A stretch of DNA of 64,000 bases from an uncultured bacterium (GTDB taxonomy: Bacteria; Verrucomicrobiota; Verrucomicrobiia; Verrucomicrobiales; DEV007), in the NCBI GenBank assembly GCA_963977015.1, contig CAXBMO010000002.1, positions 160,001 to 224,000 of the forward strand, in the 5' to 3' direction. A program made the position numbers and the translations under genes. Of the stretch, positions 648 to 61,159 are shown one piece after another. Below the pieces are notes generated by a model that was not told the origin of the DNA, searched no databases, and saw nothing but the letters and a program-made list of their open reading frames with translations. The stretch's first letter is position 1. Each line of letters begins with the position of its first letter.

Positions 648-767
648 GATGAGGAGATTCAACCCCGTTGAAGGCGACTTCGCGATTGCAAAATGTCACT
701 GGATTTCTCGCGACAGAGTGACTAACGGGTCCTTACCCTTGCCGAATCCCCCAATGTTGTTAACCCG

Positions 768-1823
768 ATGAATTGGCTTCTACAATCCCTCAGCCTCAGC
801 GTATTGCTTCTGCCATGGTGCCTCCATGCGGGAGAGGCTCCGCCAATCTCGGAGCCACTTCCGAAGCGACTCGCTTCGGCTTCGATTCTATGGGAAAACG
901 ACTCGCTGGGAGGGACGGACAAGCATTACACGAACGGGACGCGCTTTGAATTTACCCTGGGTTCGACCATCGACCGCGAATCGACCTTTCTGGGGCCGTT
1001 GGTCAACGTGTTTCAGGATCATGAGGAAATCTACGGAACCGTATTTTTCGGTCAGGACCTGTACACGCCGCGGGACATCACCGTGACTGAATTGATCGAA
1101 GACGACCGCCCTTACGCCGGTTGGCTTTATGCGGGAATGCGTTTTGGGACGGTGAATGAATGGACTGACGATCAGAAGTTCTGGTTCATCAAACGGGCGT
1201 TGGATTACACGAGTCTGGAACTGAATTTGGGGGTGGTTGGCCCATGGGCGCTGGGCGATGAAATCCAATCCGGCTTCCATGAGTTGATCAACGGCCAGGA
1301 ACCAATGGGCTGGGACAATCAGATCAACAACGAGATCGTTTTCGACGCGAATTTGTTTCAAAGCCTGAGTTTCCGCGTGCTGGAGGATTCCGCGCAGCGT
1401 GTGAGCTTCGATCTCGAACCGTTCTACAACCTGCGGGCCGGGATGGTCCAGGTTTCCGGCGGTGGTGGAATCGCTGCCGTGCTGGGGCTGAACCACAAGC
1501 TTGGGGCGACGCCTCGCCGGCTCTCTTACTCCGGGCCGCTGAGCCGGACGGGAATGCAGTCCAGTTGGGAGGTTGCGTTGTTTGGCTCAATGGAAGGGCG
1601 CGGCGTTGCGTGGAACACGTTTTTGGACGGCAACGTGTTCGCCGACGGAAGCCACTCCGTCGACAAGGAGCACTTCATTTGGCATTCAGAGGTGGGAATC
1701 ATGCTGCGCTACCGCTGGCTCGTTGCCTCCTACATCCAGGTTTTCCGCTCCGAGGAGTTTGATGGCCAGGAGGGAATTCACGAATACGGCTCCGGACGGG
1801 TCGGCTTTGAGTTCCCGTTTTAG
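768..1823 (+). CDS. Lipid A deacylase LpxR family (DUF2219) outer-membrane beta-barrel
   Basis: Signal peptide; WENDS..GTDKHYTNG, GQDLYTP, DRPYAGWL, GWDNQI motifs; C-terminal Phe. Confidence 0.9.
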   Translation: MNWLLQSLSLSVLLLPWCLHAGEAPPISEPLPKRLASASILWENDSLGGTDKHYTNGTRFEFTLGSTIDRESTFLGPLVNVFQDHEEIYGTVFFGQDLYTPRDITVTELIEDDRPYAGWLYAGMRFGTVNEWTDDQKFWFIKRALDYTSLELNLGVVGPWALGDEIQSGFHELINGQEPMGWDNQINNEIVFDANLFQSLSFRVLEDSAQRVSFDLEPFYNLRAGMVQVSGGGGIAAVLGLNHKLGATPRRLSYSGPLSRTGMQSSWEVALFGSMEGRGVAWNTFLDGNVFADGSHSVDKEHFIWHSEVGIMLRYRWLVASYIQVFRSEEFDGQEGIHEYGSGRVGFEFPF

Positions 1824-1886
1824 GCCGGATATCCTTGACGGCGAGCGCCGCAAGATTTTCAATTTTGGATCGAGTTTTCAACCTCT

Positions 1887-4250
1887 ATGCGCGCCACGTT
1901 CTTCGCCTTTTTCCTTACCGCTCTCTCCGGAATTGCATCTGATCACACGGCGTTTTTTGAAGCCCATTGTGTAAAATGCCACGGGCCGGAGAAGCAGAAG
2001 GGCGACTTTCGACTCGATACGCTGGGTGCGCCCGACTTTGACACGGCGGAAGATTGGTCCTTGATCGCTGACGTCATCGAAACCGGCGAGATGCCGCCCC
2101 GCAAAGAGCCTCGCCCCGATGCCGCAGTTGCCACCACGCTGGTCGATTGGATCAGCCACGAACTTGGCCAGATTGTCGAGCCGACGTTGGGGCTTCGCCG
2201 CATGAATCGCGTGGAATATGAAAACACGCTACATGATCTGCTCGGGATTGACACGCCGCTGGCCGAACTGCTTCCCGAAGACGGCAGCGTCCAGGGTTTT
2301 GACAACGTGGCCAACGGTTTGGGCATTTCTTCGATTCTGATGGAGCGTTATCTCGAAGCGGCGGATGCGGCATTTGAGGGAACGATTCGGCGGATTCAAC
2401 CTCTGCCTCCCGCGACGCGCCGCGCCAACCTGATGGAGATAAAGGACAACATCGAGTCGGTCAAAAAGAAGAAGGGCGGCGTGATCGAGGAAGCGGGCGG
2501 GTTCGTGGATTTCACACCGGGTTGGCCACCTGCTCGAATTGACCCCGCACATCCGATTGAGGAAGGGGTTTATCGCTGCCGCGTTGCGGTTTTTCCCCAC
2601 GAACCGAATGACCATCGCACACTTTCCGTGGCGGTATTTGCCGGTCCGTTGTTTGGCGACGGCAAGCGCCGATTCATGGGGATGTTTGACGTGACCGGAA
2701 CACCGGAGAAGCCCCGCATCATTGAATTCACGACGCGTATGGGCGAGCTTCACGCCCTCCACATTCTTCCCTGGATTTACCCGGAACACCTAACCTACCG
2801 CGATAAGCACGAAAAGCGGCCCGGTGTCGGGATTCTGTGGGCGGAGACGCATGGCCCACTGGATCAGGCGTTTCCCTCTGAACCTCAGAAGCAGCTTTTC
2901 GGGGAGTCGGAGACGCTCTCGATGGAAGCGGGTGCTTCGTTTTATATTCGGCACCGCAAGGGCGTGAAATCCCACCATGTTGCATCAACCGCACCCCGTG
3001 AGGACGCTGAGCGAATCATTCGCGATCTGATTCCACGCGCGTTTCGGCGTCCGGTCCCTGACGAATTGGCCGATCAGTTTGTCGATTTGGCGCTGGCCAA
3101 ACTCGACCAAGGAAACACCTTTGAAGATTCTGTCCGCGCAGGCTTCACCGCCGTGTTCTGCTCGCCTCATTTCCTTCTCCTGAACCGGGAAACGAAGGTG
3201 GATGACTACGAGATCGCGTCCCGCCTTTCCTACTTCCTCTGGTCGTCGCTTCCGGATGCGGAACTGATGAGCCTGGCCGCCGCCGGTAAGCTCAGTGACG
3301 CAACCGTCCGCCATGCTCAAATCGAACGGATGTTGAACGATCCCAAGAGCGAACGCCTGATCGACAACTTCACCGGTCAATGGTTGGACCTCCGGGACAT
3401 CGAATTCACGACACCGGACAAGAAGCTGTTTCCCGAATTTGATGAGTTGCTGCAACGCTCCATGGTCGCGGAGACCAAGGGATTCTTTCGCCATTTGTTA
3501 ACCGAGAACCTCAGCGTTCTGAATTTCATCGATTCGGACTTCGCCGTTCTCAACCAACGGCTGGCAACGCACTACGGCATTCCCGGAATTCGCGGCCACG
3601 AAGAGTTTCGCATCGTGCCGTTGCCGAAGGAGAGTATTCGCGGCGGAATTCTCACACACGGCAGCGTTCTCAAAGTGACCGCGAATGGAACCAGCACCTC
3701 ACCCATTTTGCGCGGGGTCTGGGTTCTCGACAATTTGCTCGGTCAACCGGCGCTGCCACCGCCACCCGGCGTTCCGGCAGTTGAGCCCGATATTCGCGGC
3801 GCGATCAACATTCGGGATCAGCTCGAGAAACATCGCGAAGACGAATCCTGCGCTCGTTGCCATGCTCGGATTGATCCTCCGGGATTCGCGCTGGAACAGT
3901 TCAATGCGATTGGAGGAGAGCGGGAATGGTATCGATCACTGGGAGGGGACGGTGGAAAGGTCAGGCATGTCAGCTATCGAATCGGTCAAACCGTTCAAAA
4001 GGGCGACGTCTGGCCCGATGGACGGAAGTTTGCGGACTTCACCGAGTTTCAGCAACAACTTCTGGATAATCCCGACGTGGTTGCCAAGGCGATCGCCTCA
4101 AAACTGCTCGTCTATGGAACCGGGCGCCCGCTCACAAATGCAGACCGCAAGATTGTGGATGCCGTTGTCGACGCCACTCGCAAGGACGATTTTGGTCTGC
4201 GATCCATGATCCATGCCGTCGCCGAGAGTGAACTCTTTTTCCGCCCGTAA
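1887..4250 (+). CDS. DUF1592/DUF1588/DUF1587/DUF1595/DUF1585 (PSD-domain) planctomycete-type c-cytochrome
   Basis: CxxCH motifs CVKCH and CARCH; RRMNRVEYENT, ASRLSYFLWSSLPD, TSPILRGVWV motifs; directly upstream of DUF1552. Confidence 0.9.
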   Translation: MRATFFAFFLTALSGIASDHTAFFEAHCVKCHGPEKQKGDFRLDTLGAPDFDTAEDWSLIADVIETGEMPPRKEPRPDAAVATTLVDWISHELGQIVEPTLGLRRMNRVEYENTLHDLLGIDTPLAELLPEDGSVQGFDNVANGLGISSILMERYLEAADAAFEGTIRRIQPLPPATRRANLMEIKDNIESVKKKKGGVIEEAGGFVDFTPGWPPARIDPAHPIEEGVYRCRVAVFPHEPNDHRTLSVAVFAGPLFGDGKRRFMGMFDVTGTPEKPRIIEFTTRMGELHALHILPWIYPEHLTYRDKHEKRPGVGILWAETHGPLDQAFPSEPQKQLFGESETLSMEAGASFYIRHRKGVKSHHVASTAPREDAERIIRDLIPRAFRRPVPDELADQFVDLALAKLDQGNTFEDSVRAGFTAVFCSPHFLLLNRETKVDDYEIASRLSYFLWSSLPDAELMSLAAAGKLSDATVRHAQIERMLNDPKSERLIDNFTGQWLDLRDIEFTTPDKKLFPEFDELLQRSMVAETKGFFRHLLTENLSVLNFIDSDFAVLNQRLATHYGIPGIRGHEEFRIVPLPKESIRGGILTHGSVLKVTANGTSTSPILRGVWVLDNLLGQPALPPPPGVPAVEPDIRGAINIRDQLEKHREDESCARCHARIDPPGFALEQFNAIGGEREWYRSLGGDGGKVRHVSYRIGQTVQKGDVWPDGRKFADFTEFQQQLLDNPDVVAKAIASKLLVYGTGRPLTNADRKIVDAVVDATRKDDFGLRSMIHAVAESELFFRP

Positions 4251-4271
4251 CCTCAGCCAGAACCCACCATC

Positions 4272-5519
4272 ATGATGAATCGCCGAACTTTTCTTCGCTC
4301 CGCCGGAGTTGCCATGGCTCTCCCCGGACTGCCCAGCCTCGGAGCGGCTCCATCCAGCCCGGACATTCGAAGGATGCTGGCCATTTGCGCTCCTCTCGGA
4401 ATCCACACTCCCCACCTCTTCCCTCAAACCGCCGGAAAAGACTATGAGGTCACGCCCTACCTGAAGCCCCTGCAATCGGTTCGAGACAAATTCACGGTAA
4501 TGTCCGGATTGAGGCACCCGATGGTGGATGGCGGCCATGCTGCGGAAAAGAGTTTCCTAACTGGTGCAGCTCATCCCGGCCAACCGAGTTTTCGCAATAC
4601 GATTTCGCTCGATCAGTATGCCGCTGAGCGCATCGGTCACGAAACGCGGTTTCCCTTTCTGGCCCTGTCGGCCAGCAACAACGGAATTTCCTACACCCGT
4701 TCCGGCGTTCTGATCCCGGCGGAAACTCGTCCGTCCAAAGTGTTCGGGCGCCTCTTCCTCGAGGGCAATCAAGCTGAAAAGGCTGCCCAGATGCGACGGA
4801 TCAAGGATGGCCAGAGCATCATGGATCTCGTCCGCGACCAGACCAGTTCGCTAACCCGAAAACTGGGCCATGAGGATCATGAGACCCTGGATCAGTATTT
4901 CACCAGCGTCCGCGAAGTGGAACAACGGCTGGTTCAGGCTGAAGAATGGGCAAAACGTCCCAAGCCGATCGTCGACCAGAAGCCCCCCACAGACATCAAC
5001 GACCGTGCCGAGTTCACCGCCCGGATGAAGACGATGTTCGATCTCATCTATCTGGCGCTGCAGACGGACTCCACCAGATTGGTGACGATGACCGGCGCGG
5101 GCGGGAACGAGGTCGTCAATCTCAAAGGGGTGGATGACGGTTGGCACAACCTGAGTCACCACGGCAAGGATCCAAGCAAGATTGAGCAGCTTTCCATCAT
5201 TGAGTTGGAGGAAATGCGACTCTTCGGCGAGTTCCTTGAGCGCTTGGATCAGACCCGGGAAGGCGAACACACGCTCCTCGATCAAACCGCGATCTTGATG
5301 GGCTCCAATCTCGGGAATGCCTCCAGCCACAACAACACCAATCTTCCCATCGTGGCTGCCGGGGGCCACTTTCAACATGGCCAGCACCTTGCGTTTGGCC
5401 CTGAGCACCAGCCGCCCTTGTGCAATCTCCACGTTTCCTACCTTCAACACCTCGGATTGGAAGTTGACACCTTTTCGACCGGAAAAGGAACGATGCGAGG
5501 TTTGGAAAGTTGGAGTTAG
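4272..5519 (+). CDS. DUF1552 (HXXSHH) domain protein, Tat-exported
   Basis: MNRRTFLR Tat motif, HNLSHH motif, canonical pairing with DUF1592. Confidence 0.9.
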   Translation: MMNRRTFLRSAGVAMALPGLPSLGAAPSSPDIRRMLAICAPLGIHTPHLFPQTAGKDYEVTPYLKPLQSVRDKFTVMSGLRHPMVDGGHAAEKSFLTGAAHPGQPSFRNTISLDQYAAERIGHETRFPFLALSASNNGISYTRSGVLIPAETRPSKVFGRLFLEGNQAEKAAQMRRIKDGQSIMDLVRDQTSSLTRKLGHEDHETLDQYFTSVREVEQRLVQAEEWAKRPKPIVDQKPPTDINDRAEFTARMKTMFDLIYLALQTDSTRLVTMTGAGGNEVVNLKGVDDGWHNLSHHGKDPSKIEQLSIIELEEMRLFGEFLERLDQTREGEHTLLDQTAILMGSNLGNASSHNNTNLPIVAAGGHFQHGQHLAFGPEHQPPLCNLHVSYLQHLGLEVDTFSTGKGTMRGLESWS

Positions 5520-12146: not shown

Positions 12147-12563
12147 ATGAAAAAAGTGCTTGCTATTCTTTTGGCAGTTTCGGTCGCAGGGGCGGCCTTT
12201 GCCGACATTCAGTCTCCTCCCGCAGATCGCGAAACTTCAGTTCGCAAGCTGAGTCGCGGTCTTTCCAACATTCTTTACGGTTTTATGGAGATCCCGGCAT
12301 CGTTCGAAACCACGCTGAAGAATGAGGGTGCCGGAGAAGCTTTCACCTACGGAATCATCAACGGATTTGATCGCGCCGGAATGCGTTTCGGTTACGGACT
12401 CTACGAAGTGGTCAATTTCCGCAGTCCAAAATACAAGGAAAGCTATCGCAAGCCATACAAGGGTTTGGACTACGACACGGTTCATGGAATGCGCGAGTTT
12501 CCGCCAGAGGTTGGGTTCAGCTCCCGTTCAGGCTACGTTCGCTCGAGTTCCAATACGAACTAA
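12147..12563 (+). CDS. Exosortase system-associated protein, TIGR04073-like
   Basis: Signal peptide and RKLSRGLSNILYGFMEIP motif. Confidence 0.8.
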   Translation: MKKVLAILLAVSVAGAAFADIQSPPADRETSVRKLSRGLSNILYGFMEIPASFETTLKNEGAGEAFTYGIINGFDRAGMRFGYGLYEVVNFRSPKYKESYRKPYKGLDYDTVHGMREFPPEVGFSSRSGYVRSSSNTN

Positions 12564-12592
12564 TCGCACTTTTCTGACTTTCGAATTTTCGG

Positions 12593-12625
12593 AAAGCGTC
12601 GCCTGAAACCGGGCGGCGCTTTTTC
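12593..12625 (+). terminator. Rho-independent terminator
   Basis: AAAGCGTCGCC...GGCGGCGCTTT hairpin running into a T-tract, 30 nt after the stop codon. Confidence 0.7.
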
Positions 12626-12703
12626 GTTGCCCCCCTGTCCCCGGCTAGCCGTCGTCAGTCTTGACGCAGGGGCAATCTACCCGAAGTTAACGATTTACCT
12701 GAC

Positions 12704-16360: not shown

Positions 16361-16496
16361 CGATGCAGATTTAGTGAACCTGTAGCCAATGAAAATGACT
16401 AAACACCGGAAAGTTTTCAGCTTTGCCGAAGGTCGAAAGACAGCGGTATCTTTCGCTACCTGCAGCATTGGCCAACACTTCACTTCAAATGCTCTA
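16361..16496. mobile_element. MITE-like element, short (empty) copy
   Basis: Imperfect terminal inverted repeats AGTGAACCTGTAGCCAATG / CATTGGCCAACACTTCACT; ends in TTCAAATGCTCTA; homologous to both ends of 59196-60220. The left boundary is approximate because it is degenerate. Confidence 0.65.
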
Positions 16497-16504
16497 GGAG
16501 AACA

Positions 16505-41197: not shown

Positions 41198-41587
41198 ATG
41201 GCTGAAGTATACCAAGCAACAGGACGACGCAAAACGGCGGTAGCCCGCGTCCGAATGACTGAAGGCAAAGGCGAAATCGTCATCAACGGACGTAGCTTCG
41301 AAGACTATTTCCCAACCGTCGCCTTGCAAAACAACCTTTTGCAGCCGTTTCAGATCGCCAACCTGATCAACAAGTTCGATCTCAAGGTCAACGCCAACGG
41401 CGGTGGCCCAAATGGACAAGTCGGAGCCATTCGCCTCGGAATCGCTCGCGCCCTGATCAAAGCAGATCCTGAGTTGCGCGGTGCTCTGAAAGAAGAAGGA
41501 ATGCTTCGCCGAGATCCCCGCGCCAAAGAGCGTAAGAAGGCGGGTCAACCTGGTGCGCGGAAGCGTTTCCAGTTCTCCAAGCGTTAA
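41198..41587 (+). CDS. rpsI: 30S ribosomal protein S9
   Basis: TGRRKTAVARV, ERKKAGQPGARKRFQFSKR. Confidence 0.99.
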   Translation: MAEVYQATGRRKTAVARVRMTEGKGEIVINGRSFEDYFPTVALQNNLLQPFQIANLINKFDLKVNANGGGPNGQVGAIRLGIARALIKADPELRGALKEEGMLRRDPRAKERKKAGQPGARKRFQFSKR

Positions 41588-41600
41588 TCTGCGTTCTTTC

Positions 41601-41619
41601 TCCTCCTTTCCAAGGAGGA
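41601..41619 (+). terminator. Hairpin after rpsI, possible terminator
   Basis: TCCTCCTT-TCC-AAGGAGGA; no downstream U-tract. Confidence 0.35.
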
Positions 41620-42006
41620 TCAGTGTAGGTTTGTGACGTCCAAAATTTTGGGGCAAGGGTGAAAACCCTTTCATGTTTTGCTCCCGGATTGGATACGGTC
41701 ACCTGCATTCGTTGCCCGGTTTTCTTGAAAGCAGCATCGCTCAGGAAGCCAATCAGGGCAGAATGCCGTGCGGCGGCGAGACATATTCCAGTGCTCTGAT
41801 ATCGGCGCTAGATTGGAACTCGATTTGGGAGGCTCCGCGTTCACGATCGGAGAATCCCTCGCGATCGATTTCGATACACAGGGCGACTCAGGGGCATGGA
41901 GGCGTTGAGTTTTAGGGAGGTTTTCAAGATGCGCCGGTCCCGGGATGCGCAGAAGTTCAGGAGAAGTTCCAAAACCTGAGCTGCCTGCGCCAAAAGAAAC
42001 CGCCCC

Positions 42007-43038
42007 ATGAATCGTCGCCAATTTCTCGCACTCTCAGCCGCATCCGCCGCGTCCGTGGCTCAACTTTCTGCCGCTTTAGGGAAACCCATGGGAATCTCGA
42101 TCGCGTCTTATGGAATTCGCTGGCGAGCCCGAAAGACTCCCGCTGGCGCCGGTTGGAAAAACGCCCTGGACGTCATCGCGCACTGCGAATCCCTCGGCAT
42201 CGGGTGCCTGCAGATCGGGGTTCGGGGCTGGCAGGAGGATTTTGCGGGAAAAGTGCGGTCGGCAAGGGAATCAGCAGGACTGATCCTGGAAGGCCAAATC
42301 GCCCTCCCGAAAGATGAAACGGACATTTCCCGCTTCGAAAACGAAGCCAAGCGGGCGAAAGAAGCCGGCGCGAAGATCCTTCGCACGGTTTGCCTTGGGG
42401 GGAGACGCTATGAAACCTTCCCGAATCACGAGCGTTGGGCTGAATTTCGATCCAATTCGATGAAGCGGCTAACTCTCGCCGAGCCCATCATGAGGAAACT
42501 CGGGCTGATTCTTGCGGTCGAGAATCACAAAGACTGGCGCACCGACGAGTTTCTTTCCATCCTTCGTCATTTTGACAGCGAATTCATCCAGGTGAATTTT
42601 GATTTTGGAAACAACCTTTCACTCTTGGAAAATCCATTGGAAGTCGCTGGAGCACTGGCCCCATGGATCGTGACCACCCATCTCAAGGACATGGCGGGCA
42701 AGGCTACAGACGAAGGCTTTCTGCTCAGTGAAGTTCCGCTGGGAACAGGAGTGCTCGACCTGGACGCGCTGATCCAAACGTGTTCTTCCCATCATCCCTC
42801 AGTTCAATTCAACTTGGAAATGATCACCAGGGATCCACTTGTGATCCCCTGTTTGAAACCGCAATACTGGGCAACCATGGATACGGTGGAAAATCGAGAA
42901 TTGGCAATGGCAAACACTCTTGCGATTCTCAAGTCCAATCCTGTCGAACTTCCAACCCTATCCGGACTCGATCAGACGCAGCAAATCACGTTCGAAGAGG
43001 AGAATGTCCGCAAGAGCCTCGCTTGGCCCCACACTTAA
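42007..43038 (+). CDS. Tat-exported sugar phosphate isomerase/epimerase (xylose isomerase-like TIM barrel)
   Basis: MNRRQFL Tat motif; AVENHKD, DFGN, THLKD, NLEM metal ligands. Confidence 0.9.
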   Translation: MNRRQFLALSAASAASVAQLSAALGKPMGISIASYGIRWRARKTPAGAGWKNALDVIAHCESLGIGCLQIGVRGWQEDFAGKVRSARESAGLILEGQIALPKDETDISRFENEAKRAKEAGAKILRTVCLGGRRYETFPNHERWAEFRSNSMKRLTLAEPIMRKLGLILAVENHKDWRTDEFLSILRHFDSEFIQVNFDFGNNLSLLENPLEVAGALAPWIVTTHLKDMAGKATDEGFLLSEVPLGTGVLDLDALIQTCSSHHPSVQFNLEMITRDPLVIPCLKPQYWATMDTVENRELAMANTLAILKSNPVELPTLSGLDQTQQITFEEENVRKSLAWPHT

Positions 43039-44948
43039 GAGTGCGGTGGATCAAACCGGACTTCGGCAGGATTATCGCTGGCGAACGCTGAGGCACTGGT
43101 CTTTTTCGGATTCTCCTCGGCAGCGAGTTGTCCCTGAGCCATCAAGGCAATACCAGCAGCAGCGGCTCCGCTTTTCTTGAGCATTTCCATCTTTCGCTTG
43201 TTGGAATGCCCGTAACGCTCGCGGCGAATCTTGAGGGAATTCTTCTCGTGGATTCGGTAGACAACGTTGCGCACCTCATCGTCGCGATAGAACTCCGCTC
43301 CAACCTTGTAGAGACGATCCCAAAGATGATAATCATCAGCCCCAAGTCCTACGGCGCGCTCCTGATAGTTGCCCGCCTGCAACACCATCTTGGTGCGGAG
43401 CAGAACCGATGAATGCGGCAGCATGTTGTCGTCGCTATTCCCCGTAAACATGGTCTCCAATCCTTTGTTGGGCCAATGCAGCCGAGGCATGATTTCACCG
43501 TTCTCAAGGGTCATCAAAAGGCATCCATACACGTCGAGATTCTTCTGATCCATCGTCGCAACAGCGCGCTCCAAATATTCGGGCACGAGCTGGTCGTCGT
43601 AGTCCAGCGGCTTGTAAAATTCCGTATCGCACTGAGCAACCGCCTGGCGATGCAACCAACTGCAATGTTCAATATCCGCCGTCACCCCGGTGCAGATGAG
43701 GGGGAGGCCGAAACGCTTGGCAAGCCGTTCGCCCATCGCCCAGGGACCGTCCACGAGTAGAATGACCTTGAAGTTCTGGTAGGTCTGGCAGCAGATACTG
43801 TTGATCGCATCCTCAAGGAGTTCTTCATCGACTCCCTGATGAATTCGAACCCCAACGGTCACGCGGGCACTCTCATGGCGCAGGCTCGTGTGAGTCAGTT
43901 TCCCGAGAACCAGGCTGTGTGCCGACGAGTAACCGGCCGCTGTCGAAAGATCTGCGACACTTGCCAAACAGTTCATGGGATCGAGCTTCGCCGCCTTGAG
44001 AATGGCGCCGTAGGCAACCTTGGCGAGAGCCTTGGGATTGTCGTTCCAGTCGATGAGATACCCGTTGTATCCGCGCTTGATGTAGTCAGCGATTCCGCAT
44101 GAACGCGTCACCACAACCGGCACCCCGCAACTCAAGGCCTCAGCTGCGGTCAGGAGAAATCCTTCCTTCTTGCTGTTTCCAAGCAGGACATGGCAGCCTT
44201 CCAACCGGTGACGGTAGTTGAAGGGATCAAAATCAAGCGGACGGAGATCAATGCGATCGGCCACTCCAAGCTTCTGCGCAAGCCCCATGAAATTCTCCAT
44301 AGCCTCCCCCTGAACCTTCAAGGTGTAGGCCAAACCCGCGGTCTCGGCGCCGGTCCAGATTCGGAGGATGATGCGGGGATCTTCCTTCAACAGATAGGGA
44401 AGCGACATCAAGCCCTTGTCCTCGAGCGGACGTCCCATCCACGCGACAACGATGCGGTCGCGATGATTGTAGGCGCCCTTGGCCGGGGTGAATTCCGTGA
44501 CCGGAGGCGGGAGAATACCGGCGCTGATGTGGCCGTTGTCCTTCATCCAGTCTTCGTAGCGGTCGAGAACCTTTTGGGAAACGCCGGCAACGGTCAATCC
44601 GCGGTATTCCTTGTAGGCCTTGCTGAAGTAGCGCCACCCGGCCTCGTCCCAGCTGTGAAGAACCAACGAAGTGGGTCGCTCCGCCAAACCGGTCAGGTTG
44701 CCGTAGCTGAGGAACCAACTCGAAGGATTTCCCGGAGCTTCTCTCGTGATGTCACCACATTCAAATCCGGCATCAACCGCCTTGTCGAGCAGCGGCATGT
44801 CGTCACTTTGGCAGTATAGAGTGGTGCGATCACGAACCCATTCGGGGAGAGCCTTGATATAGCGTAAAACTGCAGTTTGAGCGCCTCCGAGAGCCATATT
44901 GTGGGTCACGAAGCAAGGTGCTGTCTGAGGCAGTAGGGAATGGGCCAT
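43035..44948 (-). CDS. Two-domain glycosyltransferase (GT4-like plus GT2-like)
   Basis: LGGAQ, GR...KG, EGFLLTAAEALSCGVPVV (GT-B); SICCQTYQNF, LDYDD, ADDYHLW (GT-A). Confidence 0.88.
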   Translation of the reverse strand: MAHSLLPQTAPCFVTHNMALGGAQTAVLRYIKALPEWVRDRTTLYCQSDDMPLLDKAVDAGFECGDITREAPGNPSSWFLSYGNLTGLAERPTSLVLHSWDEAGWRYFSKAYKEYRGLTVAGVSQKVLDRYEDWMKDNGHISAGILPPPVTEFTPAKGAYNHRDRIVVAWMGRPLEDKGLMSLPYLLKEDPRIILRIWTGAETAGLAYTLKVQGEAMENFMGLAQKLGVADRIDLRPLDFDPFNYRHRLEGCHVLLGNSKKEGFLLTAAEALSCGVPVVVTRSCGIADYIKRGYNGYLIDWNDNPKALAKVAYGAILKAAKLDPMNCLASVADLSTAAGYSSAHSLVLGKLTHTSLRHESARVTVGVRIHQGVDEELLEDAINSICCQTYQNFKVILLVDGPWAMGERLAKRFGLPLICTGVTADIEHCSWLHRQAVAQCDTEFYKPLDYDDQLVPEYLERAVATMDQKNLDVYGCLLMTLENGEIMPRLHWPNKGLETMFTGNSDDNMLPHSSVLLRTKMVLQAGNYQERAVGLGADDYHLWDRLYKVGAEFYRDDEVRNVVYRIHEKNSLKIRRERYGHSNKRKMEMLKKSGAAAAGIALMAQGQLAAEENPKKTSASAFASDNPAEVRFDPPHS

Positions 44949-45056
44949 GGTCGATACTTTGGGTGTCTACAATTGTTAAGGCTGCTAAAGATTTACCACA
45001 ATCCTCATCTGGAGCAAGGGGCAACGTCGTGGTGGACGCTGCGAAGTGGAGCGATG

Positions 45057-45084
45057 TTCGAGAAAAGTGGTCACTTTTCTCGAA
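45057..45084. repeat. Perfect 13-bp inverted repeat
   Basis: TTCGAGAAAAGTG-GT-CACTTTTCTCGAA. Confidence 0.85.
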
Positions 45085-45147
45085 AGCGGCCTCGCAGTCG
45101 CATACACGGGCCCTGACTTGCGAAACTTCAGGAAATTTCTGCGAAAA

Positions 45148-46344
45148 TCAGCCCAGAGTCTCGACCCACCAAGTCAGCAGTCCCGCTTCCCAAAGGGTCA
45201 GCCCAGTCCAGAAAAACCCCATGCCCAGCAAAATCCAACTGGCAGGAACAACCAGGAGACTGCGGTACCAATTTTTCTTCCAGAAGGCTCCCAAAACGAT
45301 CCAGGTAACAAGAAATACCGCAAACAACGCAGCAATCTCGCCGAGCAAAAACCCCTGAAGTTCCTGAAGCGATCCCGAAGTCTCTGGTTGGGTACAAAAA
45401 CCGAGAAGCATTCCGACGAGCACCACCAAGGCGAACCGAATCGAGGTGACTTTCGATTGAGCGATATTACTCCAGGCCATCAGGATAATCGCGCCCCCCA
45501 ATACCAATTCCCCCAAGTAGGCCCAATCAGGAACGCGACCGACCAGTGCCAGCATTTGACCAAACACGAGCCCCAACACCAAAGCCAGAACTTGGGAAAA
45601 CCCACGAAAAAATCCCGTGGCCAATAGAAAAATCGCCACCGCCAACACCGCTCGTTTCGCATCATTGGAGAACAGCAATTTGGCTCCCGACAAGAGGTGA
45701 TCAACCATGGTGGGTTCCGATTCAGCGACGTCAACGTCCAGGAACGGGTCACCATCAACAGGTTCGCTTCCAACAAATCCCAGATCAATGGGCCGGCTGA
45801 ACTCGCCAGCAAACAGTGTGTGCGCCCGCTTCTGCATCTCGCCATCAATGATGACGACCATGACCAACGCGACATCCGTTTCCTCCGAGAGGCGCACCAT
45901 GAACTTCTCCGCATTTTCGGGAACGCGCCCCTTTGTCTCAGTGTAGAGCTGGGTGACGATGTCCAACCCCGGGAGCGGGTTGTCCTGTTCGACCGGTTCC
46001 AGTGGACTGAATTCCGCCTTCAGTTCGTCTTCATCGAAATGAAGCGTCACCGCGTTTCTCAGATAGTCCATCGCGGCTTCTTCAGGCGAGATCGTGTCAT
46101 TCAGAAGTGGATCTTCAGAAGCTTGAATCTCGAGGCTTAACGCAAACGTGTAGGAGCCATCACGCTCAAAACTCGCCTTTGCCGCGACTGCCTTGATTTG
46201 ATGAGCTTCCGACACACCGGGCACAAGAAGAAAAATCCCAACTTGCACGATCAAAAACGGGAGGAGAAAAGGTAGGCGGCCAAGCTGAATCACGGAGAAC
46301 ATTCTACAACGGTTGAAATCTCCCGCAAATGAAGCACAGATCAT
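45148..46344 (-). CDS. HupE/UreJ-like membrane protein with N-terminal soluble domain
   Basis: Signal peptide ending SEAH, soluble domain, then about six TMs with HupE-like layout; start may be ATG 46302. Confidence 0.6.
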   Translation of the reverse strand: MICASFAGDFNRCRMFSVIQLGRLPFLLPFLIVQVGIFLLVPGVSEAHQIKAVAAKASFERDGSYTFALSLEIQASEDPLLNDTISPEEAAMDYLRNAVTLHFDEDELKAEFSPLEPVEQDNPLPGLDIVTQLYTETKGRVPENAEKFMVRLSEETDVALVMVVIIDGEMQKRAHTLFAGEFSRPIDLGFVGSEPVDGDPFLDVDVAESEPTMVDHLLSGAKLLFSNDAKRAVLAVAIFLLATGFFRGFSQVLALVLGLVFGQMLALVGRVPDWAYLGELVLGGAIILMAWSNIAQSKVTSIRFALVVLVGMLLGFCTQPETSGSLQELQGFLLGEIAALFAVFLVTWIVLGAFWKKNWYRSLLVVPASWILLGMGFFWTGLTLWEAGLLTWWVETLG

Positions 46345-46443
46345 ATGCGTGAACAGTTAAATTTGCTTAAAAATACAGTAATTATAAACTTTTAACCTCA
46401 AGCTTGACCCATAGGTTAAAATCAACCAACCATTCCCCAAAAC

Positions 46444-47226
46444 ATGCGCTTTCTCCCCATTTTCTTAAGCATGGTTTTGCTTGATATCGCCGGGCTGTCT
46501 TTGACAGACGCCAAGGCTGTTGTGTATCTCGAAATCATCGAAGTTCCAGCGTCCGCCCCTTCCACTCCCAAAAAGAATCCGTTCGCGTTTGGGAAGAAAA
46601 GCGAGGCGCAGATCAAACCTGCCGTAACCTTGAGTGAACGCTTTGCCCTTACGGCGGAGGGGAAACGAAAAGCCAAGCAATGGGCCAACTCGAAAAGCCC
46701 GAACGAGACCCACCGCATCGTCGTCTACAAGTGTCCGGAGGTTCTGAAAATTGCGGGTACTCACAATACGGAAGTCGTAATCGACATTGGCAGACAAGCT
46801 GCATTTCTTCTGGTTGGTGGGGCGATCGGCCTCGAAACGGAAATTTCCACGGCCCGATCGGGGAAGGTCACCCCCAAAGGATCGTTCCAAATGACGGAAC
46901 GCGTTCGCAATGGGAAGATCTCCAACCTCTACGACGTCGAAATGCCCTATTGGATGCGCCTCGACAATACTCCCTACGGCGTTCATGCCGGGTATCTTCC
47001 CGGATATCCGGCATCCGCGGGATGCATTCGACTTCCCCATGTCGCTGCCGAGGTCATCTATCGCTACACGGCCCGTGGTTCGACCGTCGTCATCACCAAC
47101 TCGTGGCGTCCTTCTCCCAATTTGCCCAAAACCCCGAGCAATCATTCCCAGCCGCCCAAAGCAGGGCGCTTCAGTTCGGATTTGATGAATCCAACCATTC
47201 CGAAGTATCCGGAAATCGGTGGGTAG
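46444..47226 (+). CDS. L,D-transpeptidase (YkuD family)
   Basis: ISTA...TPKG, MPYWMRL, GVHAGYLPGYPASAGCIRL. Confidence 0.9.
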   Translation: MRFLPIFLSMVLLDIAGLSLTDAKAVVYLEIIEVPASAPSTPKKNPFAFGKKSEAQIKPAVTLSERFALTAEGKRKAKQWANSKSPNETHRIVVYKCPEVLKIAGTHNTEVVIDIGRQAAFLLVGGAIGLETEISTARSGKVTPKGSFQMTERVRNGKISNLYDVEMPYWMRLDNTPYGVHAGYLPGYPASAGCIRLPHVAAEVIYRYTARGSTVVITNSWRPSPNLPKTPSNHSQPPKAGRFSSDLMNPTIPKYPEIGG

Positions 47227-57908: not shown

Positions 57909-59159
57909 ATGGAACGCCGCGTTGTCATCACCGGCCTTGGAGTCGTTACGTCTCTTGGCTGGGATCTTACCACCTTTTGGAATCATTTAGTCACCGGCCG
58001 AAGTGGGATTCGTCGCGTTCAGGGATTCGAGACTTCGGGTTTGCGCTGCCAAATCGGAGCGGAACTTCTCGATTTTGATGCCAGCCCCTATTTCGCCAAT
58101 TCTCGCGATGCGAAACGCGCGGATCGCTTCATTCAATATTCCGTTGCGGCTTCCAAAATGGCCGTCGCCGAATCGGGGCTCGACCTCGAAAATTTGGCAG
58201 ACCCCGGCAAAGCTGGAGTCTTTCTCGGGACCGGCGTTGGCGGTTTGAGGACCACGGAAATCAGCCAACACGTTCTGGATGAAAAGGGGCCCGGCAAAGT
58301 TTCCGCCTTTGCGATTCCCATGATGATTGGAAATGCGGCGGGCGGTCTGGTCGCGATGGATTTTGGAATCACCGGTCCCAATTTCTGTGTCACGTCAGCC
58401 TGTGCAACGGGGTGCCATGCGATGGGCGAAGCGTGGAAAACGATCAAATTCGGCGATGCCGACGTAATGATTGCTGGTGGGTCCGAGTCCGCCGTGACGC
58501 GACTGGCTTTTGCGGGTTTCGGGAATATGCGGGCTCTCAGCCGGCGGAACGACGAACCGGAACGCGCCTCACGCCCCTTCGATTTGGACCGTGATGGCTT
58601 TGTCATGGGCGAAGGAGCCGGCGTCGTGATCCTCGAAGAATTGGAAAGCGCGAAGAAACGTGGCGCGACCATTTTTGCCGAATTGGTCGGCTACGGAACG
58701 TCGGCCGATGCCTTTCACCCGACCATGCCACATCCCGAGGGACGTGGAGCCAGCCAATGCATGGAACGAGCCCTCGCTCGCGCAAAGCTGAATCCAAACC
58801 AAGTCGAATACATCAACGCCCACGGCACCTCGACCCCTCACGGCGACATTGCCGAAACCATGGCCATCAAACAAACCTTTGGCGACTACGCCCAAAATGG
58901 TCTCGCGGTCAGTTCCACCAAATCAATGACGGGCCATCTCCTCGGAGCAGCTGGCGGAGTCGAACTGGCAACCTGCGTGCTCGCGATCAAAAACCAGGTC
59001 GCACCGCCAACGATCAATCTGGAAACTCCCGACCCCAAATGCGACTTGGACTACGTGCCCAACGAAGCCAGGGAAATGCCGATCACTTCCGCATTGAACA
59101 ACTCGTTTGGATTCGGAGGAACCAACGCGACGCTGATCGTCTCAAAATTCCTCGGCTAA
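57909..59159 (+). CDS. fabF: Beta-ketoacyl-ACP synthase II
   Basis: SACATG, NAHGTST, KSMTGHLLGAAG, NSFGFGGTN. Confidence 0.96.
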   Translation: MERRVVITGLGVVTSLGWDLTTFWNHLVTGRSGIRRVQGFETSGLRCQIGAELLDFDASPYFANSRDAKRADRFIQYSVAASKMAVAESGLDLENLADPGKAGVFLGTGVGGLRTTEISQHVLDEKGPGKVSAFAIPMMIGNAAGGLVAMDFGITGPNFCVTSACATGCHAMGEAWKTIKFGDADVMIAGGSESAVTRLAFAGFGNMRALSRRNDEPERASRPFDLDRDGFVMGEGAGVVILEELESAKKRGATIFAELVGYGTSADAFHPTMPHPEGRGASQCMERALARAKLNPNQVEYINAHGTSTPHGDIAETMAIKQTFGDYAQNGLAVSSTKSMTGHLLGAAGGVELATCVLAIKNQVAPPTINLETPDPKCDLDYVPNEAREMPITSALNNSFGFGGTNATLIVSKFLG

Positions 59160-59315
59160 GGGGAACTGGGACCTGGGAAATTGAAAACTGCGATCTCAAG
59201 TAGTTGAAGTGAACCTGTAGCCAACGGCTATGACGAGGATCAGGAAAGAGTGCGGCTAGGCCAAAAGAAGAGGATCAGCGGTATCTTTGGCCACCTGCAT
59301 CGTTCGTGATCGGTC

Positions 59316-59375
59316 TCAGAGCGTCTTCGCTGTGCCGTCCGCGATCAGCGGATCGGAACCAGCGTTTTGTTCTGA
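59316..59375 (-). other. Integron attC recombination site (60 bp)
   Basis: Minus strand TCAGAAC-AAAAC-GCTGGTTC-CG-A-TCCGC-TGATC-GCGGA-CG-GCACAGC-GAAGAC-GCTCTGA: R''/5-nt spacer/L'' with extra base/stem-loop/L'/6-nt spacer/R'. R' reads GCT rather than GTT. Confidence 0.8.
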
Positions 59376-59398
59376 CTTCTTGTGTTCTACCATGGCGT

Positions 59399-60109
59399 TT
59401 ATCGATACTTTGAAACGATCTCCGTGTCCCCAATAAAACAATGCTTTAGCGTTCTCATAGACCGAGCTACGCGCTCTCCATCGTCCAGGCGACCACAATC
59501 TTCCGTCATGAATTCCTCGAGTTTCGGCGCAATTGAAGGCAGCGCACCCACAGATGTGAGATTTCGGCATCGGGCCAGCTCAAGCTGTTTCAACTTGGGC
59601 ATCGAGGAAAGCCCATCAAGCCTGTGAGGATTTGCCCAACAGACCATCATCTTCTGGACCGACGGAGGAACCAACAATCGCTCAAAGGTTGCCTTCTTCG
59701 GGTTGAAATGCCAAACGTGGTAGCGCTTCACGTTTGTCAGGGAATCGATTCCGATGTCCCTCTTGTTGAAGTGAATGATCAATTCCTCAAGATCAGGGAG
59801 CTTTGAAAAGTCGATACCGGGCCTCTTGGGGAACACTCCAAAGAACTTCAGCTTTGCCACGGAGTAGAGTCCATCGATATCCCTAACCTTGACGTCGTTG
59901 AACCACATCCGCTCCACAAAGGGAATTTGCCTAAGGAAATCCAACGTATCCTCCTCAAACCCCAGATAGGGGGCCCCAAAAATGCTCTTCACCCTTCGGC
60001 GTTGGATCTCCGCAACACATTCGTCGATTCTCGAAGATTCGATCCCAATTGAGTCAGCGCCTGCTGGACCCCATCCCGTCAGGAAGCCATTCTCCCGGTC
60101 GCAAACCAT
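59399..60109 (-). CDS. Cassette-borne hypothetical protein with leucine-rich-repeat-like pattern
   Basis: Repeating LxxLxxL/LPDLEEL/MPKLKQLEL...CRNL segments; bounded by GTTCTGA upstream and attC downstream. Confidence 0.8.
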   Translation of the reverse strand: MVCDRENGFLTGWGPAGADSIGIESSRIDECVAEIQRRRVKSIFGAPYLGFEEDTLDFLRQIPFVERMWFNDVKVRDIDGLYSVAKLKFFGVFPKRPGIDFSKLPDLEELIIHFNKRDIGIDSLTNVKRYHVWHFNPKKATFERLLVPPSVQKMMVCWANPHRLDGLSSMPKLKQLELARCRNLTSVGALPSIAPKLEEFMTEDCGRLDDGERVARSMRTLKHCFIGDTEIVSKYR

Positions 60110-60217
60110 TCTTCTTTGTTGAATTCTTCTCGGTCAGAACTTGCTCCGCTCCCTCACAACGCCTTGCAGGAAGCCAAATCTCTTCGCGGCATTGGCAACA
60201 CCTCCACTTCAAACGCT

Positions 60218-61159
60218 CTAACGCATTTTCTCGAAGCGATTCGTCAACAGCTCAACGCTGGACTTGTTGCCGGTTGCATCCAGCGCCTTGTCCGTGAGCT
60301 GCTGCTCGAGAGCGTTCTTTGTCGGACGTTCAACCTCGTAAAAGACGCCAAACTTGCCCGGCCAAGGTTCATCAGCCAACTTGAAAGCTTTGTTCTGATC
60401 GGTGATGTCATGGCGCTTCCAGTCATCTTCGCTGTCGTCCCACTTCTTCTCTTCGATCAACTCAAACTTCCCGTCTTTGCGAGGATTCGCCTCATCAAAG
60501 GAACCTTTGTAGAACACAACGCACTCGGAAAGGACCTCAACGACGCTAAAGCCGGGATGCTTGATCGCGCGCTCGAACATCTCCATCATGTGCTTCACTT
60601 GAGCAGCATGGGTGCGAGCCACAAAGGACGCGCCACTGGAAACCAGCTTCTTCATGGGGTTGATCGGTTGATCAACCGCGCCCGTTGGATCGGTTTTCGA
60701 CTTGAAACCAATCGGCGAAGTCGGGGAAGTCTGCTTCTTGGTCAATCCATAGACAAAGTTGTCCATGATGACGTAGGTCAGGTTGACGTTCTTCCGAGCG
60801 CAATGCTCAAGGTGATTCCCACCAATCGAAAATCCATCACCGTCCCCACCAAAAACGAACACGTTGAGATCCGGACGCGAAAGGCTAACGCCGGTCGCAA
60901 ACGGAAGAGCCCTGCCATGAATGAAGTGAACTCCGTGACCATTCACGAAATACGGAAACCGTGACGAGCACCCAATCCCGGCAATCGTCGCGATTTTCTC
61001 ATGGGGGATCTGGAGTTTCTCCACAATCTTGAAGAAGGAAGCAAGGACAGCGAAGTCGCCACAGCCCGGACACCAGGTTGGGTGATCCGCCGTTAAATCC
61101 TTTTTCGTCAACTTTGGAGCCTCGAACGGTGGAGCTTCTTTGATGTCGATGGTTGCCAT
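60218..61159 (-). CDS. korB: 2-oxoacid:ferredoxin oxidoreductase beta subunit
   Basis: WCPGCGD, GIGCSSR, HGRALP, GGDGDGFSIG, YGLTKKQTSPT. Confidence 0.93.
   Translation of the reverse strand: MATIDIKEAPPFEAPKLTKKDLTADHPTWCPGCGDFAVLASFFKIVEKLQIPHEKIATIAGIGCSSRFPYFVNGHGVHFIHGRALPFATGVSLSRPDLNVFVFGGDGDGFSIGGNHLEHCARKNVNLTYVIMDNFVYGLTKKQTSPTSPIGFKSKTDPTGAVDQPINPMKKLVSSGASFVARTHAAQVKHMMEMFERAIKHPGFSVVEVLSECVVFYKGSFDEANPRKDGKFELIEEKKWDDSEDDWKRHDITDQNKAFKLADEPWPGKFGVFYEVERPTKNALEQQLTDKALDATGNKSSVELLTNRFEKMR

Follow-up and report, generated by a model that had tools for sequence, protein, structure and literature searches.

For a long time integron cassettes were regarded as confined to integron arrays. 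The locus described here raises the question of how a single promoterless gene, followed by a palindrome resembling an attC site, came to lie between the two halves of a short inverted-repeat element, and whether that element merely received the gene or also moves it. An initial annotation of the window (the whole stretch of 64,000 nucleotides that was analyzed) had read the element as a MITE that either carries integron cassettes around the chromosome independently of an integron platform or offers them a landing site. The features to which we refer are the following, in window coordinates.

57909..59159, + strand: fabF-like gene, left flank of the element (ORF with matches in relatives; name from the initial annotation)
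59196-59226, within the left part: degenerate left inverted end of the loaded copy
59198..59321, + strand: MITE left part, family profile positions 1-124 (nhmmer match to profile 3-130, E 3e-30)
59322..60139, - strand: inserted integron gene cassette, 818 bp (TTCTGAC leader, gene, attC ending in G)
59315..59376, - strand: attC, a 62-nt imperfect palindrome (end-to-end match to covariance model R1; DNA fold)
59399..60109, - strand: cassette gene, 711-nt ORF for a 236-aa cytoplasmic leucine-rich-repeat (LRR) protein
60117..60139, + strand: cassette leader, 23 nt, a second, diverged copy of MITE positions 99-124 (profile hit)
60133-60139, last 7 nt of the leader: TTCTGAC, remainder of the R' box
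60140..60220, + strand: MITE right part, profile positions 125-205 (nhmmer match to profile 99-205 at 60117-60220, E 1e-21)
60190-60220, within the right part: right inverted end of the loaded copy
60218..61159, - strand: korB-like gene (ORF that adjoins fabF in relatives; name from the initial annotation), directly upstream of the cassette and on the same strand
16365..16497, + strand: internally deleted MITE copy, profile positions 3-106 and 171-206 (nhmmer E 6e-18 for 16365-16468, and 0.72)

The MITE family and its split copy

The family was defined with a profile built from seven full-length copies, all on other contigs, and the whole genome was searched with nhmmer. Its unit is 205 to 206 bp long and non-coding, with TA at both tips, 31-bp inverted ends (complementary at 26 of 31 positions in the consensus) and a long internal hairpin. 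The search returned 52 matches at E ≤ 1 and 38 at E ≤ 1e-3, the latter on about 25 contigs; the genome holds 10 near-full-length copies, seven of which seeded the profile, and about 25 partial ones. All 12 copies examined are intergenic, with four overlapping the stop codon of a neighboring gene. Full copies mostly begin with TAGAGC and finish with GCTCTA(G), so that neither a TA nor a YTAR target duplication is distinguishable from this end repeat. Many copies are internal-deletion derivatives that keep both ends. Truncation is common as well (about 25 of 35 copies), the breaks being concentrated around the hairpin tip: pieces that retain only the right part begin at profile positions 117, 128, 130, 130 and 133, and those with only the left part stop at 104-112. 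The central palindrome was itself considered as an attC site and rejected, as on both strands GTT falls in the 5' arm and AAC in the 3' arm. A second repeat family has its inner core in common with this one and different ends.

The family is present in 4 of the 40 relatives searched and was not found in the same-genus genome G001. In a genome of another genus, G010, at least 11 copies share a 32-mer without change, six of which lie where contigs end, and judged from these sequences the family looks recently active there. Small size, lack of coding capacity, terminal inverted repeats, dispersed copies and presence/absence differences among relatives are all observed; the genome contains a MITE family, and its behavior as such is supported. 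The further assignment to IS630-type MITEs found no support: no DDE_3 (PF13358) or DDE_Tnp_1 transposase was found in this genome (95% complete), and the TA and YTAR targets are indistinguishable.

It is very improbable that the repeat is instead a structured element maintained by the host (an RNA element or a REP/ERIC-like intergenic palindrome) that a cassette hit incidentally. Such an element would suit the folding of the copies into a long hairpin, their exclusively intergenic position, often abutting stop codons, the failure to find a partner transposase, and the second family with the same core. Against it, no Rfam family matched in the window, the repeat is patchy in relatives and absent from the orthologous site of G003, near-identical copies break contigs in G010, and the combination of 31-bp inverted ends, TA tips and many deletion derivatives with both ends kept is typical of MITEs.

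One copy of this MITE is split exactly by 818 bp between fabF and korB. When the insert is removed, a complete 205-bp MITE (124 + 81 bp) remains and nothing is lost; the insertion point is the tip of the central hairpin, between profile positions 124 and 125. Extension of the left part beyond position 124 scores no better than shuffled sequence (58 of 200 shuffles reach it). At the left tip TC stands in place of the expected TA, and the terminal TA of the right part forms part of the korB stop codon. The insert has a GC content of 51.2%, against 56.0% for the genome.

The four sequence observations of the initial annotation were all borne out, apart from two corrections. BLAST and direct counting both reproduce the ungapped alignment of 59208-59304 to 16373-16469 (69 of 97 identities) and that of 60189-60220 to 16465-16496 (26 of 32); the identical 17-mer starts at 59208 and 16373 as described, and the outer ends are imperfect inverted repeats, with 5 (left) and 2 (right) mismatches from the 31-nt family consensus. 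The repeat match is far above chance (whole-genome profile E of 3e-30 at 59200-59327, 1e-21 at 60117-60220 and 6e-18 at 16365-16468). The halves are indeed separated by a cassette here, over 818 bp (59322-60139) when measured against the full unit rather than the approximately 880 bp first given. What had been taken as an empty sibling 43 kb away is a deletion derivative, as a caveat in the same annotation had allowed: it lacks profile positions ∼107-171 and hence the insertion point, and its two halves are contiguous only because of that internal deletion. Copies that are genuinely empty measure ∼205 bp and are located on other contigs, for example at C10:175046-175251. The family unit is ∼205 bp, not ∼130 bp.

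The annotation had also suggested examining the fabF-korB junction of relatives for an empty site. The element is absent from this junction in the same-genus genome G003, where the spacer measures ∼76 nt, though the orthologous empty site aligns on the korB side only. In four marine metagenome runs from a single study, contigs span the two junctions without differences, so the structure is not an assembly artifact; the assembly may itself derive from these runs, which are therefore not independent evidence. Among these contigs, which drop rare forms, no joint skipping the cassette and no excised or empty form was seen.

The attC site, the integrase gene and the cassette gene

The palindrome at the left end of the insert is an attC site and belongs to one class with the others in this genome. 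It lies on the strand of the gene, 22 nt past the stop codon, and reads R'' box GTCAGAAC, spacer AAAAC, bulged stem-loop, spacer GAAGAC, G, and then the target-derived CTCTGAG. Covariance model R1, trained on five other attC sites of this genome that are related to one another, matches 59315-59376 end to end and ranks this site first in the window. The score is 18.3 bits, and the E values, which are rough, are 1.2e-4 for a 10-kb search and 0.0016 for one of 128 kb. This score is modest, with a genome-scaled E of about 0.2, and a prefiltered whole-genome search did not list the site; it is convincing only because the place had been fixed beforehand. The runner-up in the window (12506-12629, 13.2 bits) has the appearance of a terminator-type hairpin, not an attC. 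A simpler scan, for a 7-mer ending in AAC with its complement 35-125 nt away and a folding filter, gave 2333 matches on both strands and was of no use. A BLAST search with the palindrome alone found no second copy in the genome.

The two ends of the insert also fit each other: the cassette start G|TTCTGAC (60140-60133) is a perfect complement, at 8 of 8 positions, to the R'' box (59376-59369). Genome-wide, this 8-mer signature occurs at 19 of 5638 long ORFs, at least one of which is another true cassette, on contig C36; for the 7-mer form, 13 of 210 mismatched pairs agree by chance. The classical R-box consensus is RYYYAAC / GTTRRRY, and the boxes found here, TCAGAAC / GTTCTGA, fit it only in AAC/GTT, as do those of the other sites in the genome (NNCGAAC / GTTCGNN). 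The attC family of this genome has 25 conserved pairs, seven of them with compensatory changes, and homology among its members stops right after the crossover G.

The genome encodes an integron integrase and carries further cassettes. The intI gene, for which the initial annotation had suggested looking, lies on another contig (C1:216131-217426; TIGR02249, 290.1 bits, cut-off 265), where its neighbors are housekeeping genes and no array adjoins it. When the cassette signature was counted genome-wide as a null, a five-site attC array came to light on C36, and other attC sites are scattered over C5, C28, C30, C6, C31, C18, C16, C11 and C4 (about 10 in total); 15 sites score at E < 0.01, including the five of the training set. 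Other isolated cassettes of the genome have hybrid junctions without GTT too, namely G|AT on C28 and G|GA on C5.

The cassette is compact, with a 30-nt leader, the 711-nt ORF and 22 nt to the attC. A scan of 59100-60300 for sigma-70-like promoters found none of that type. The encoded protein belongs to a conserved family with 16 members at 38-45% identity. Its AlphaFold2 model (mean pLDDT 92.7) finds LRR proteins such as SDS22 and internalins as best Foldseek matches, and Pfam LRR_4 matches at 23.4 bits, under the cut-off of 27. By its predicted fold the protein, which has no signal peptide, may be a binding module. Neither the insert nor the protein has a further copy in the genome (BLAST, tblastn), and no relative of the protein was found in 40 related genomes. 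Homologues are spread patchily across phyla; one from Geopseudomonas, frameshifted, sits between two attC sites of an eight-site array. The identification of the interrupting DNA as an integron cassette is thus upheld by an attC recognized with a model from the same genome, by the intI gene, and by a homologue that is itself a cassette. The 7-mer signature occurs at 1 of 14 homologue loci, which is chance level. In four Planctomycetota homologues the shared DNA begins 10 nt ahead of the start codon and extends no farther than the stop codon, with no common attC, and no MITE profile match lies beside 21 homologous gene loci of other genomes.

Origin of the nested structure

We consider it probable that the locus is an isolated integron cassette of the SALIN/attG type inserted into a MITE, giving a structure like that of a mobile insertion cassette (MIC). 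A ∼205-bp MITE would first have come to occupy the fabF-korB spacer, in contact with the korB stop codon. The integron integrase, the presumed maker of the insertion, would later have cut this copy at its hairpin tip and inserted one circular cassette. Its crossover, G|CTCTG on the minus strand, would be a non-canonical genomic site, neither attI nor attC, and the product an isolated cassette nested in a MITE, with a passenger gene between transposon ends. Transcription of korAB, which lies 108 nt upstream and has the same orientation, could read through into the LRR gene. Excision by the integrase would yield a circle with the junction GAAGAC-GTTCTGAC and leave an intact 205-bp MITE. Because no matching transposase was found, the composite is probably now fixed.

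Integrases can place cassettes at ordinary genomic attG sites, for which a preprint gives the consensus GWT (Loot et al., bioRxiv 10.1101/2022.09.11.507474). The target in the MITE consensus is G|CTCTG (minus strand), and its triplet GCT departs from that GWT rule (10.1101/2022.09.11.507474).

A plain integrase insertion does not account for the likeness of the leader to the MITE. The leader adds 12.8 bits to the profile match of the right part, a score that none of 200 shuffles reaches. It agrees with the left copy of positions 99-124 at 14 of 22 positions and with copies C9 and C15 at 18 of 22, and it differs from the MITE consensus by a C-to-T change and the loss of TG, which create the perfect complement to R''.

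These observations bear on the possibility that no integrase was involved, the gene having been caught between two MITEs that inserted separately and were truncated later, or captured when a break at the palindrome tip was repaired, with the palindrome a terminator-like hairpin. Truncated copies are common, with breaks concentrated around the hairpin tip; the pair of sequences that represent positions 99-124 are dissimilar and resemble different family members, as would fit two parent copies; and the target triplet is not GWT. Such a history is nonetheless distinctly unlikely: it requires two deletions, 8 nt and 77 nt from the gene ends, that together restore exactly one 205-bp unit, and it leaves unexplained the end-to-end match to the own-genome attC model with strand and distance both correct, the conversion of the distal copy (C to T, loss of TG) into a perfect R'' complement, and the occurrence of the gene family as a cassette elsewhere.

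That the MITE is a working vehicle or docking site, with repeated cassette entry and loaded copies moved by a transposase acting in trans, independently of a platform, is unlikely. The loaded copy does have the anatomy of a mobile insertion cassette, the family looks recently active in G010, and the closer agreement of the leader with C9 and C15 than with the resident copy would fit a hop between MITE copies. Yet there is one loaded copy, and its outer left end is degenerate. Among roughly 80 family copies and fragments in five genomes (this genome, G002, G003, G010 and G023) there is no other gene-sized insert, the only other insert being a nested 300-bp MITE, and no inverted end pair besides that of the loaded copy brackets more than 300 bp. 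The initial proposal of a cassette vehicle is therefore not sustained, the loaded unit being single-copy and its partner transposase not found.

No IS with matching ends was found in this genome, and eight transposase loci of G002, G003 and G010 lack the family ends. PF13358 was likewise not found in G010, a genome in which the family looks active; G002 and G003 contain it, but with no family ends nearby. A scan of metagenomes for the end motif gave, among the matches listed, mostly chance hits and two records scoring as copies from this genome, and no IS. In terms of a MIC, a passenger gene between inverted ends without a transposase is seen; further copies and a cognate transposase were not found.

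Support for the landing-site idea is weak. Two of the 11 other attC loci have a MITE fragment no more than 1.5 kb away, where the expectation is 1.6% per locus, and the cassette on C5 begins 13 nt from a MITE end. Both cassettes, however, lie beside the element and not inside it, and as both element types prefer intergenic, flexible regions, this proximity could arise from that preference alone. We regard it as unlikely that the hairpin tip is a preferred integrase docking site, that cassettes hop between MITE copies and that the leader was carried along by off-site excision from another copy occupied earlier. If this were true, mobile insertion cassettes would have a natural forerunner in loaded MITEs, and integron cassettes would gain a second, transposase-driven means of spread without an integron platform.

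Known systems compared with the locus

An integrase-made insertion invites comparison with SALIN/attG cassettes as set out in 10.1101/2022.09.11.507474. There as here, a single coding sequence with one attC stands apart from attI sites, arrays and integrase genes, G is joined to target sequence in a hybrid junction downstream of the attC, and a promoterless gene depends on a neighboring promoter; this genome also has an array-less integrase (In0) and an integrase-less attC cluster (CALIN), as with SALIN systems. The differences are that the target here is G|CT rather than GWT, that it is the hairpin tip of a MITE, a context not mentioned in the sections of the preprint that were consulted, that the cassette starts with 23 nt resembling the target element, and that the host belongs to the Planctomycetes-Verrucomicrobia group rather than the Proteobacteria.

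The locus is a clean natural example of a cassette outside an integron, in a little-studied marine bacterium of that group with its own attC class, an array-less integrase and about ten scattered cassettes. Its landing place is a transposon relic, so that a single promoterless gene now stands between transposon ends, and it suggests one concrete origin of mobile insertion cassettes and a second movement route for cassettes. IS231-derived MICs occur in Bacillus cereus. Like the MIC/MICE elements presented in PMC5444012, for example the qnrS2 element of Aeromonas plasmids, the locus has inverted ends around a passenger gene without a transposase and is related to gene-free MITEs with the same ends. 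Known MICs are read as IS derivatives in which the transposase has been replaced (PMC5444012), whereas here the passenger is a recognizable integron cassette inserted into a preexisting MITE; moreover, no cognate IS was found for this family, no two-sided flanking duplication was seen, and the loaded unit is single-copy.

MITEs are also associated with integron-derived DNA in MITE-flanked integrons and integron mobilization units (Gillings 2009, Domingues 2011, Poirel 2009; as cited in PMC3575428 and PMC5444012), and there as here the association could give cassettes a second route of movement. In those systems two MITEs surround a whole integron or array, whereas here one cassette lies inside one MITE.

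The anatomy of the MITE family is itself a familiar one. Correia elements of Neisseria and ERIC elements of enterobacteria are 100-200 bp long and intergenic, with TA tips, inverted ends, long hairpins, and both full-length and internally deleted forms. The family described here is similar in these respects, with no sequence relationship to them and in another phylum. Insertions of complete genes are not known among the described variants of Correia and ERIC elements. For annotators, a MITE that appears split, or a small orphan gene, may hide a cassette.

A TA-ended repeat family and its two copies in the window

The window holds a long copy of a repeat at 59198-60220, between fabF-like and korB-like genes, and a short copy at 16365-16497. 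The four sequence statements made about them in the initial annotation are all correct: by BLAST and direct count, 59208-59304 and 16373-16469 are identical at 69 of 97 ungapped positions and 60189-60220 and 16465-16496 at 26 of 32, a common 17-mer begins at 59208 and at 16373, and the outer ends form an imperfect inverted pair. BLAST of both pieces over the full assembly, which has 51 contigs and 6.89 Mb and in which the window is C2:160001-224000, placed them as parts of a larger unit of ~205 bp that is intact on other contigs. A family profile seeded with seven intact copies returned 52 matches at E≤1 and 38 at E≤1e-3. Ten matches are near full length (the seeds on C3, C5, C9, C10, C15, C29, and C32, together with C2:42281-42484 and copies on C21 and C33), and the others either retain both ends around an internal deletion or are one-sided fragments. 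The consensus begins TAGAGCAGTTTAAGTGAACCTGTAGCCAATG and carries a near-complement of it at the other end (26/31 complementary), and the whole unit folds as one long hairpin with the tip CAGAGC-TT-GCTCTG. All 12 copies checked are intergenic and 4 overlap the stop codon of the adjoining gene; the korB stop codon includes the terminal TA of the loaded element. This fits a target containing TA, as stop codons frequently provide in a GC-rich genome. The terminal (C)TAG/TAA supplies or overlaps the adjoining stop codon at window 60218-60220, C9:67190, C10:175248, and C29:10002. No Rfam family matched anywhere in the window, and we file the family as a MITE whose target could be either TA or YTAR.

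Two further repeats were seen in this genome. A second family (C8:243322-243456 and C1:619710-619816) shares the inner core of the MITE and has other inverted ends (AGTGCATCATCCGGAAACTAACCGG...). Near-perfect palindromes of 88-89 nt, GTAAAAC...GTTTTAC, with a DNA fold of about -44 kcal/mol, occur at C41:22882-22970, C41:24129-24217, and C27:26841-26928; the two on C41 are mutually inverted with ~1.16 kb between them and may mark the two ends of a further mobile element.

The short copy comprises profile positions 3-106 and 171-206; it is an internal-deletion derivative whose missing middle part includes the point of interruption of the long copy. Because the insertion point is deleted there, it is not the empty form that had been proposed; the ~205-bp copies on other contigs are the empty forms. 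In the long copy, 59200-59321 corresponds to profile positions 3-124 and 60117-60220 to positions 99-205. The right-hand overlap with positions 99-124 is real, adding 12.8 bits, a score attained by 0 of 200 shuffles; the left part showed no extension beyond position 124 (58 of 200 shuffles were equally good). Both junctions are spanned, without a difference, by contigs of four marine metagenome runs from a single study.

An integron cassette at the tip of the hairpin

The interruption of the long copy contains one gene.

59399-60109, minus strand: cassette gene, an ORF of 236 residues

On the minus strand, a 62-nt imperfect palindrome starts 22 nt past this gene and reads GTCAGAAC-AAAAC-stem/loop-GAAGAC-G, followed by CTCTGAG, and G|TTCTGAC, 30 nt ahead of the start codon, is the perfect complement of GTCAGAAC. 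An equivalent 8-mer signature accompanies 19 of 5,638 long ORFs in the genome. We ran a covariance model built from five other attC sites of this genome (R1), with the site at 59315-59376 left out of model building, unfiltered over the window. It matched 59315-59376 (minus strand) from first to last model position at 18.3 bits (E of 1.2e-4 in 10 kb), the top match in the whole window ahead of a runner-up at 13.2 bits. This score is modest and would be insufficient alone in a whole-genome search; we nevertheless accept the cassette call made in the initial annotation, because place, strand, and boundaries had been set in advance and match a cassette exactly.

A crossover at the junction G on both sides makes the cassette 818 bp long (59322-60139) and leaves 59198-59321 plus 60140-60220 (124 + 81 = 205 bp), an entire element without any loss. 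On the cassette strand the target reads GAGCAAG|CTCTGTGACC in the family consensus and falls at the tip of the central hairpin. Its triplet is G|CT, whereas Loot et al. found GWT at genomic insertion sites (preprint 10.1101/2022.09.11.507474). Other single cassettes of this genome end in G|AT (C28) and G|GA (C5), and hybrid non-GTT junctions are therefore usual here. By the definitions in that preprint, the locus is a SALIN (isolated cassette), and the genome has in addition an In0 (integrase without array) and a CALIN (attC cluster without integrase).

attC sites and the integrase elsewhere in the genome

Inspection of the 19 signature ORFs led to contig C36, where sites of the form NNNNNAAC-AAGAC-G...GAC-G|TTCG... 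stand between genes. A single 128-nt site is present twice on C36 and also on C5, C28, and C30; these five copies are homologous exactly up to the crossover G, and the sequence that follows varies by place (TTCGATA, TTCGGTC, GAAGACG, ATACTAT). In this five-site family, 25 base pairs, interrupted by bulges, are conserved, and 7 of them have compensatory changes. The recurring sites are attC sites. Over the genome, R1 found 15 sites at E<0.01 (the five training sites included), about ten of them single and on other contigs. A search for intI, as proposed in the initial annotation, found an integron integrase at 290 bits to TIGR02249 (cut-off, 265).

attC sites (R1, single sites at E<0.01) and integron integrase (TIGR02249) of the genome
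C36:38208-44671, minus strand: five-site attC array with genes of 183-444 aa between
C5:241631-241758: single attC site
C28:81801-81928: single attC site
C30:31017-31145: single attC site
C6:342916-343043: single attC site
C6:220280-220406: single attC site
C31:28645-28771: single attC site
C18:47538-47663: single attC site
C16:233-360: single attC site
C11:159562-159688: single attC site
C4:398408-398533: single attC site
C1:216131-217426 (locus L019, 11132-12427): integron integrase, 431 aa, with an N-terminal extension

The integrase gene has housekeeping neighbours (PSCyt/PSD1 protein, YkuD, ThiD-like kinase, LptA-like, response regulator, RuvB) and no cassette array beside it on C1, an In0; the PSCyt/PSD1 neighbour is in keeping with the Planctomycetes-Verrucomicrobia group. 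The C36 array is close to one end of its 46.7-kb contig, of which locus L234 covers 41500-46500, and is distant from the integrase gene; it is a CALIN, and its stop codons fall in or beside the R'' boxes.

Origin of the loaded copy and its cassette gene

The cassette opens with 23 nt (60139 down to 60117) that repeat MITE positions 124 down to 99 in diverged form. A fresh target duplication is ruled out as their source: the resident left copy and the leader copy are alike at 14 of 22 positions, and each is nearer to other family members (left copy to C10 at 23/26, right copy to C9 and C15 at 18/22). Where the right copy deviates from the MITE consensus (C to T, loss of TG), it does so in precisely the way that gives the perfect R'' partner. 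Because other leaders also have an A-rich stretch past the R' box (TTCGCTGAAGAAAAT on C5 and C28, TTCGATAAAGATAAT on C36), the likeness to the MITE may partly be a requirement of integrase or ribosome, though the ACCGAG common to leader and MITE exceeds any A-rich requirement. Another possibility is that the cassette formerly lay in another family copy and that off-site excision took a piece of MITE along; excision outside the insertion point is reported in the abstract of 10.1101/2022.09.11.507474.

The proposal that the element is a vehicle for cassettes finds no support beyond its anatomy: the left tip is degenerate, one loaded copy is present, and neither a transposase nor a second location of the gene was found. 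The ~80 copies and fragments of the family seen in five genomes contain one further insert, a nested 300-bp MITE in G002, the genome of a sister species (L045, G002:C290, 1037-1548; a different MITE of ~300 bp at profile position ~62-70, with ends GGGGTGAAA... / ...TTTCACCCC). The companion proposal, that the MITE offers cassettes a landing site, is weakly suggested by proximity: among the 11 other attC loci, with C36 taken as one, 2 have a family fragment within 1.5 kb, with 1.6% per locus expected (p of ~0.014, simple binomial), and the C5 cassette begins 13 nt outside a MITE end. Neither of the two lies inside an element, and attC cassettes and MITEs both favour flexible intergenic regions.

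The family is present in 4 of 40 related genomes (G002, 4 matches; G003, 13; G010, from another genus, 18; G023, 2) and was not found in G001 (same genus, 87% complete). G010 has at least 11 copies without differences over a 32-mer, and six contigs (C138, C155, C156, C166, C228, and C538; loci L088-L091 and L096-L104) stop inside the end of the element, a pattern that suggests very recent spread in that genome and a transposase yet to be found. PF13358 and PF01609 transposases were not found in the genome under study, the family ends are absent from eight transposase loci of G002, G003, and G010, and no inverted end pairs >300 bp apart other than the loaded copy occur in the genome under study. 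A metagenome scan for the end motif gave, among the matches listed, chance matches and apparent own copies of this organism. Between fabF and korB in relatives, a precise empty site is shown at the korB-side boundary, the one that could be aligned: in G003 the gene ends are ~76 nt apart with a hairpin and no element between, and in G002 a 265-aa ORF with a WCGPC motif occupies the place.

All the pieces are of known kinds, namely, a MITE family, an isolated cassette, and a MIC-like outcome, the last as far as the accessible part of PMC5444012 describes it. We found no description in the literature of a MITE family for this bacterial group. MITE-flanked integrons are already known, according to citing papers; in those cases MITEs flank integrons, whereas here a single cassette lies inside a MITE, for which we found no description in the accessible parts of related papers.

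The insert has a G+C content of 51.2% (genome, 56.0%). The cassette transcript would likely come from read-through from korAB, because a scan for sigma-70-type sites found no promoter-like site for the gene and korB lies 108 nt upstream on the same strand. The protein has a subthreshold LRR_4 match in Pfam and no match in NCBIfam, and neither a paralogue in this genome nor a relative in 40 related genomes was found. Its family is conserved (16 proteins, 38-45% identity, many invariant positions), and the predicted fold is an LRR solenoid (mean pLDDT, 92.7) with SDS22 and internalin-type LRR domains as the nearest solved folds; the protein is most likely a small cytoplasmic binding module. Homologues are scattered over Planctomycetota, Verrucomicrobiota, one Cyanobium, one Mycobacteriales MAG, and Geopseudomonas aromaticivorans. 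The homologue in the last, which is frameshifted, has an attC site on either side within an array of eight such sites and is therefore a bona fide cassette there. That array, of the CTAAC...GTTAG type, spans 64-5268 of locus L077 (NZ_JAHRGL010000019.1), and the cassette holding the homologue is at 3931-4711.
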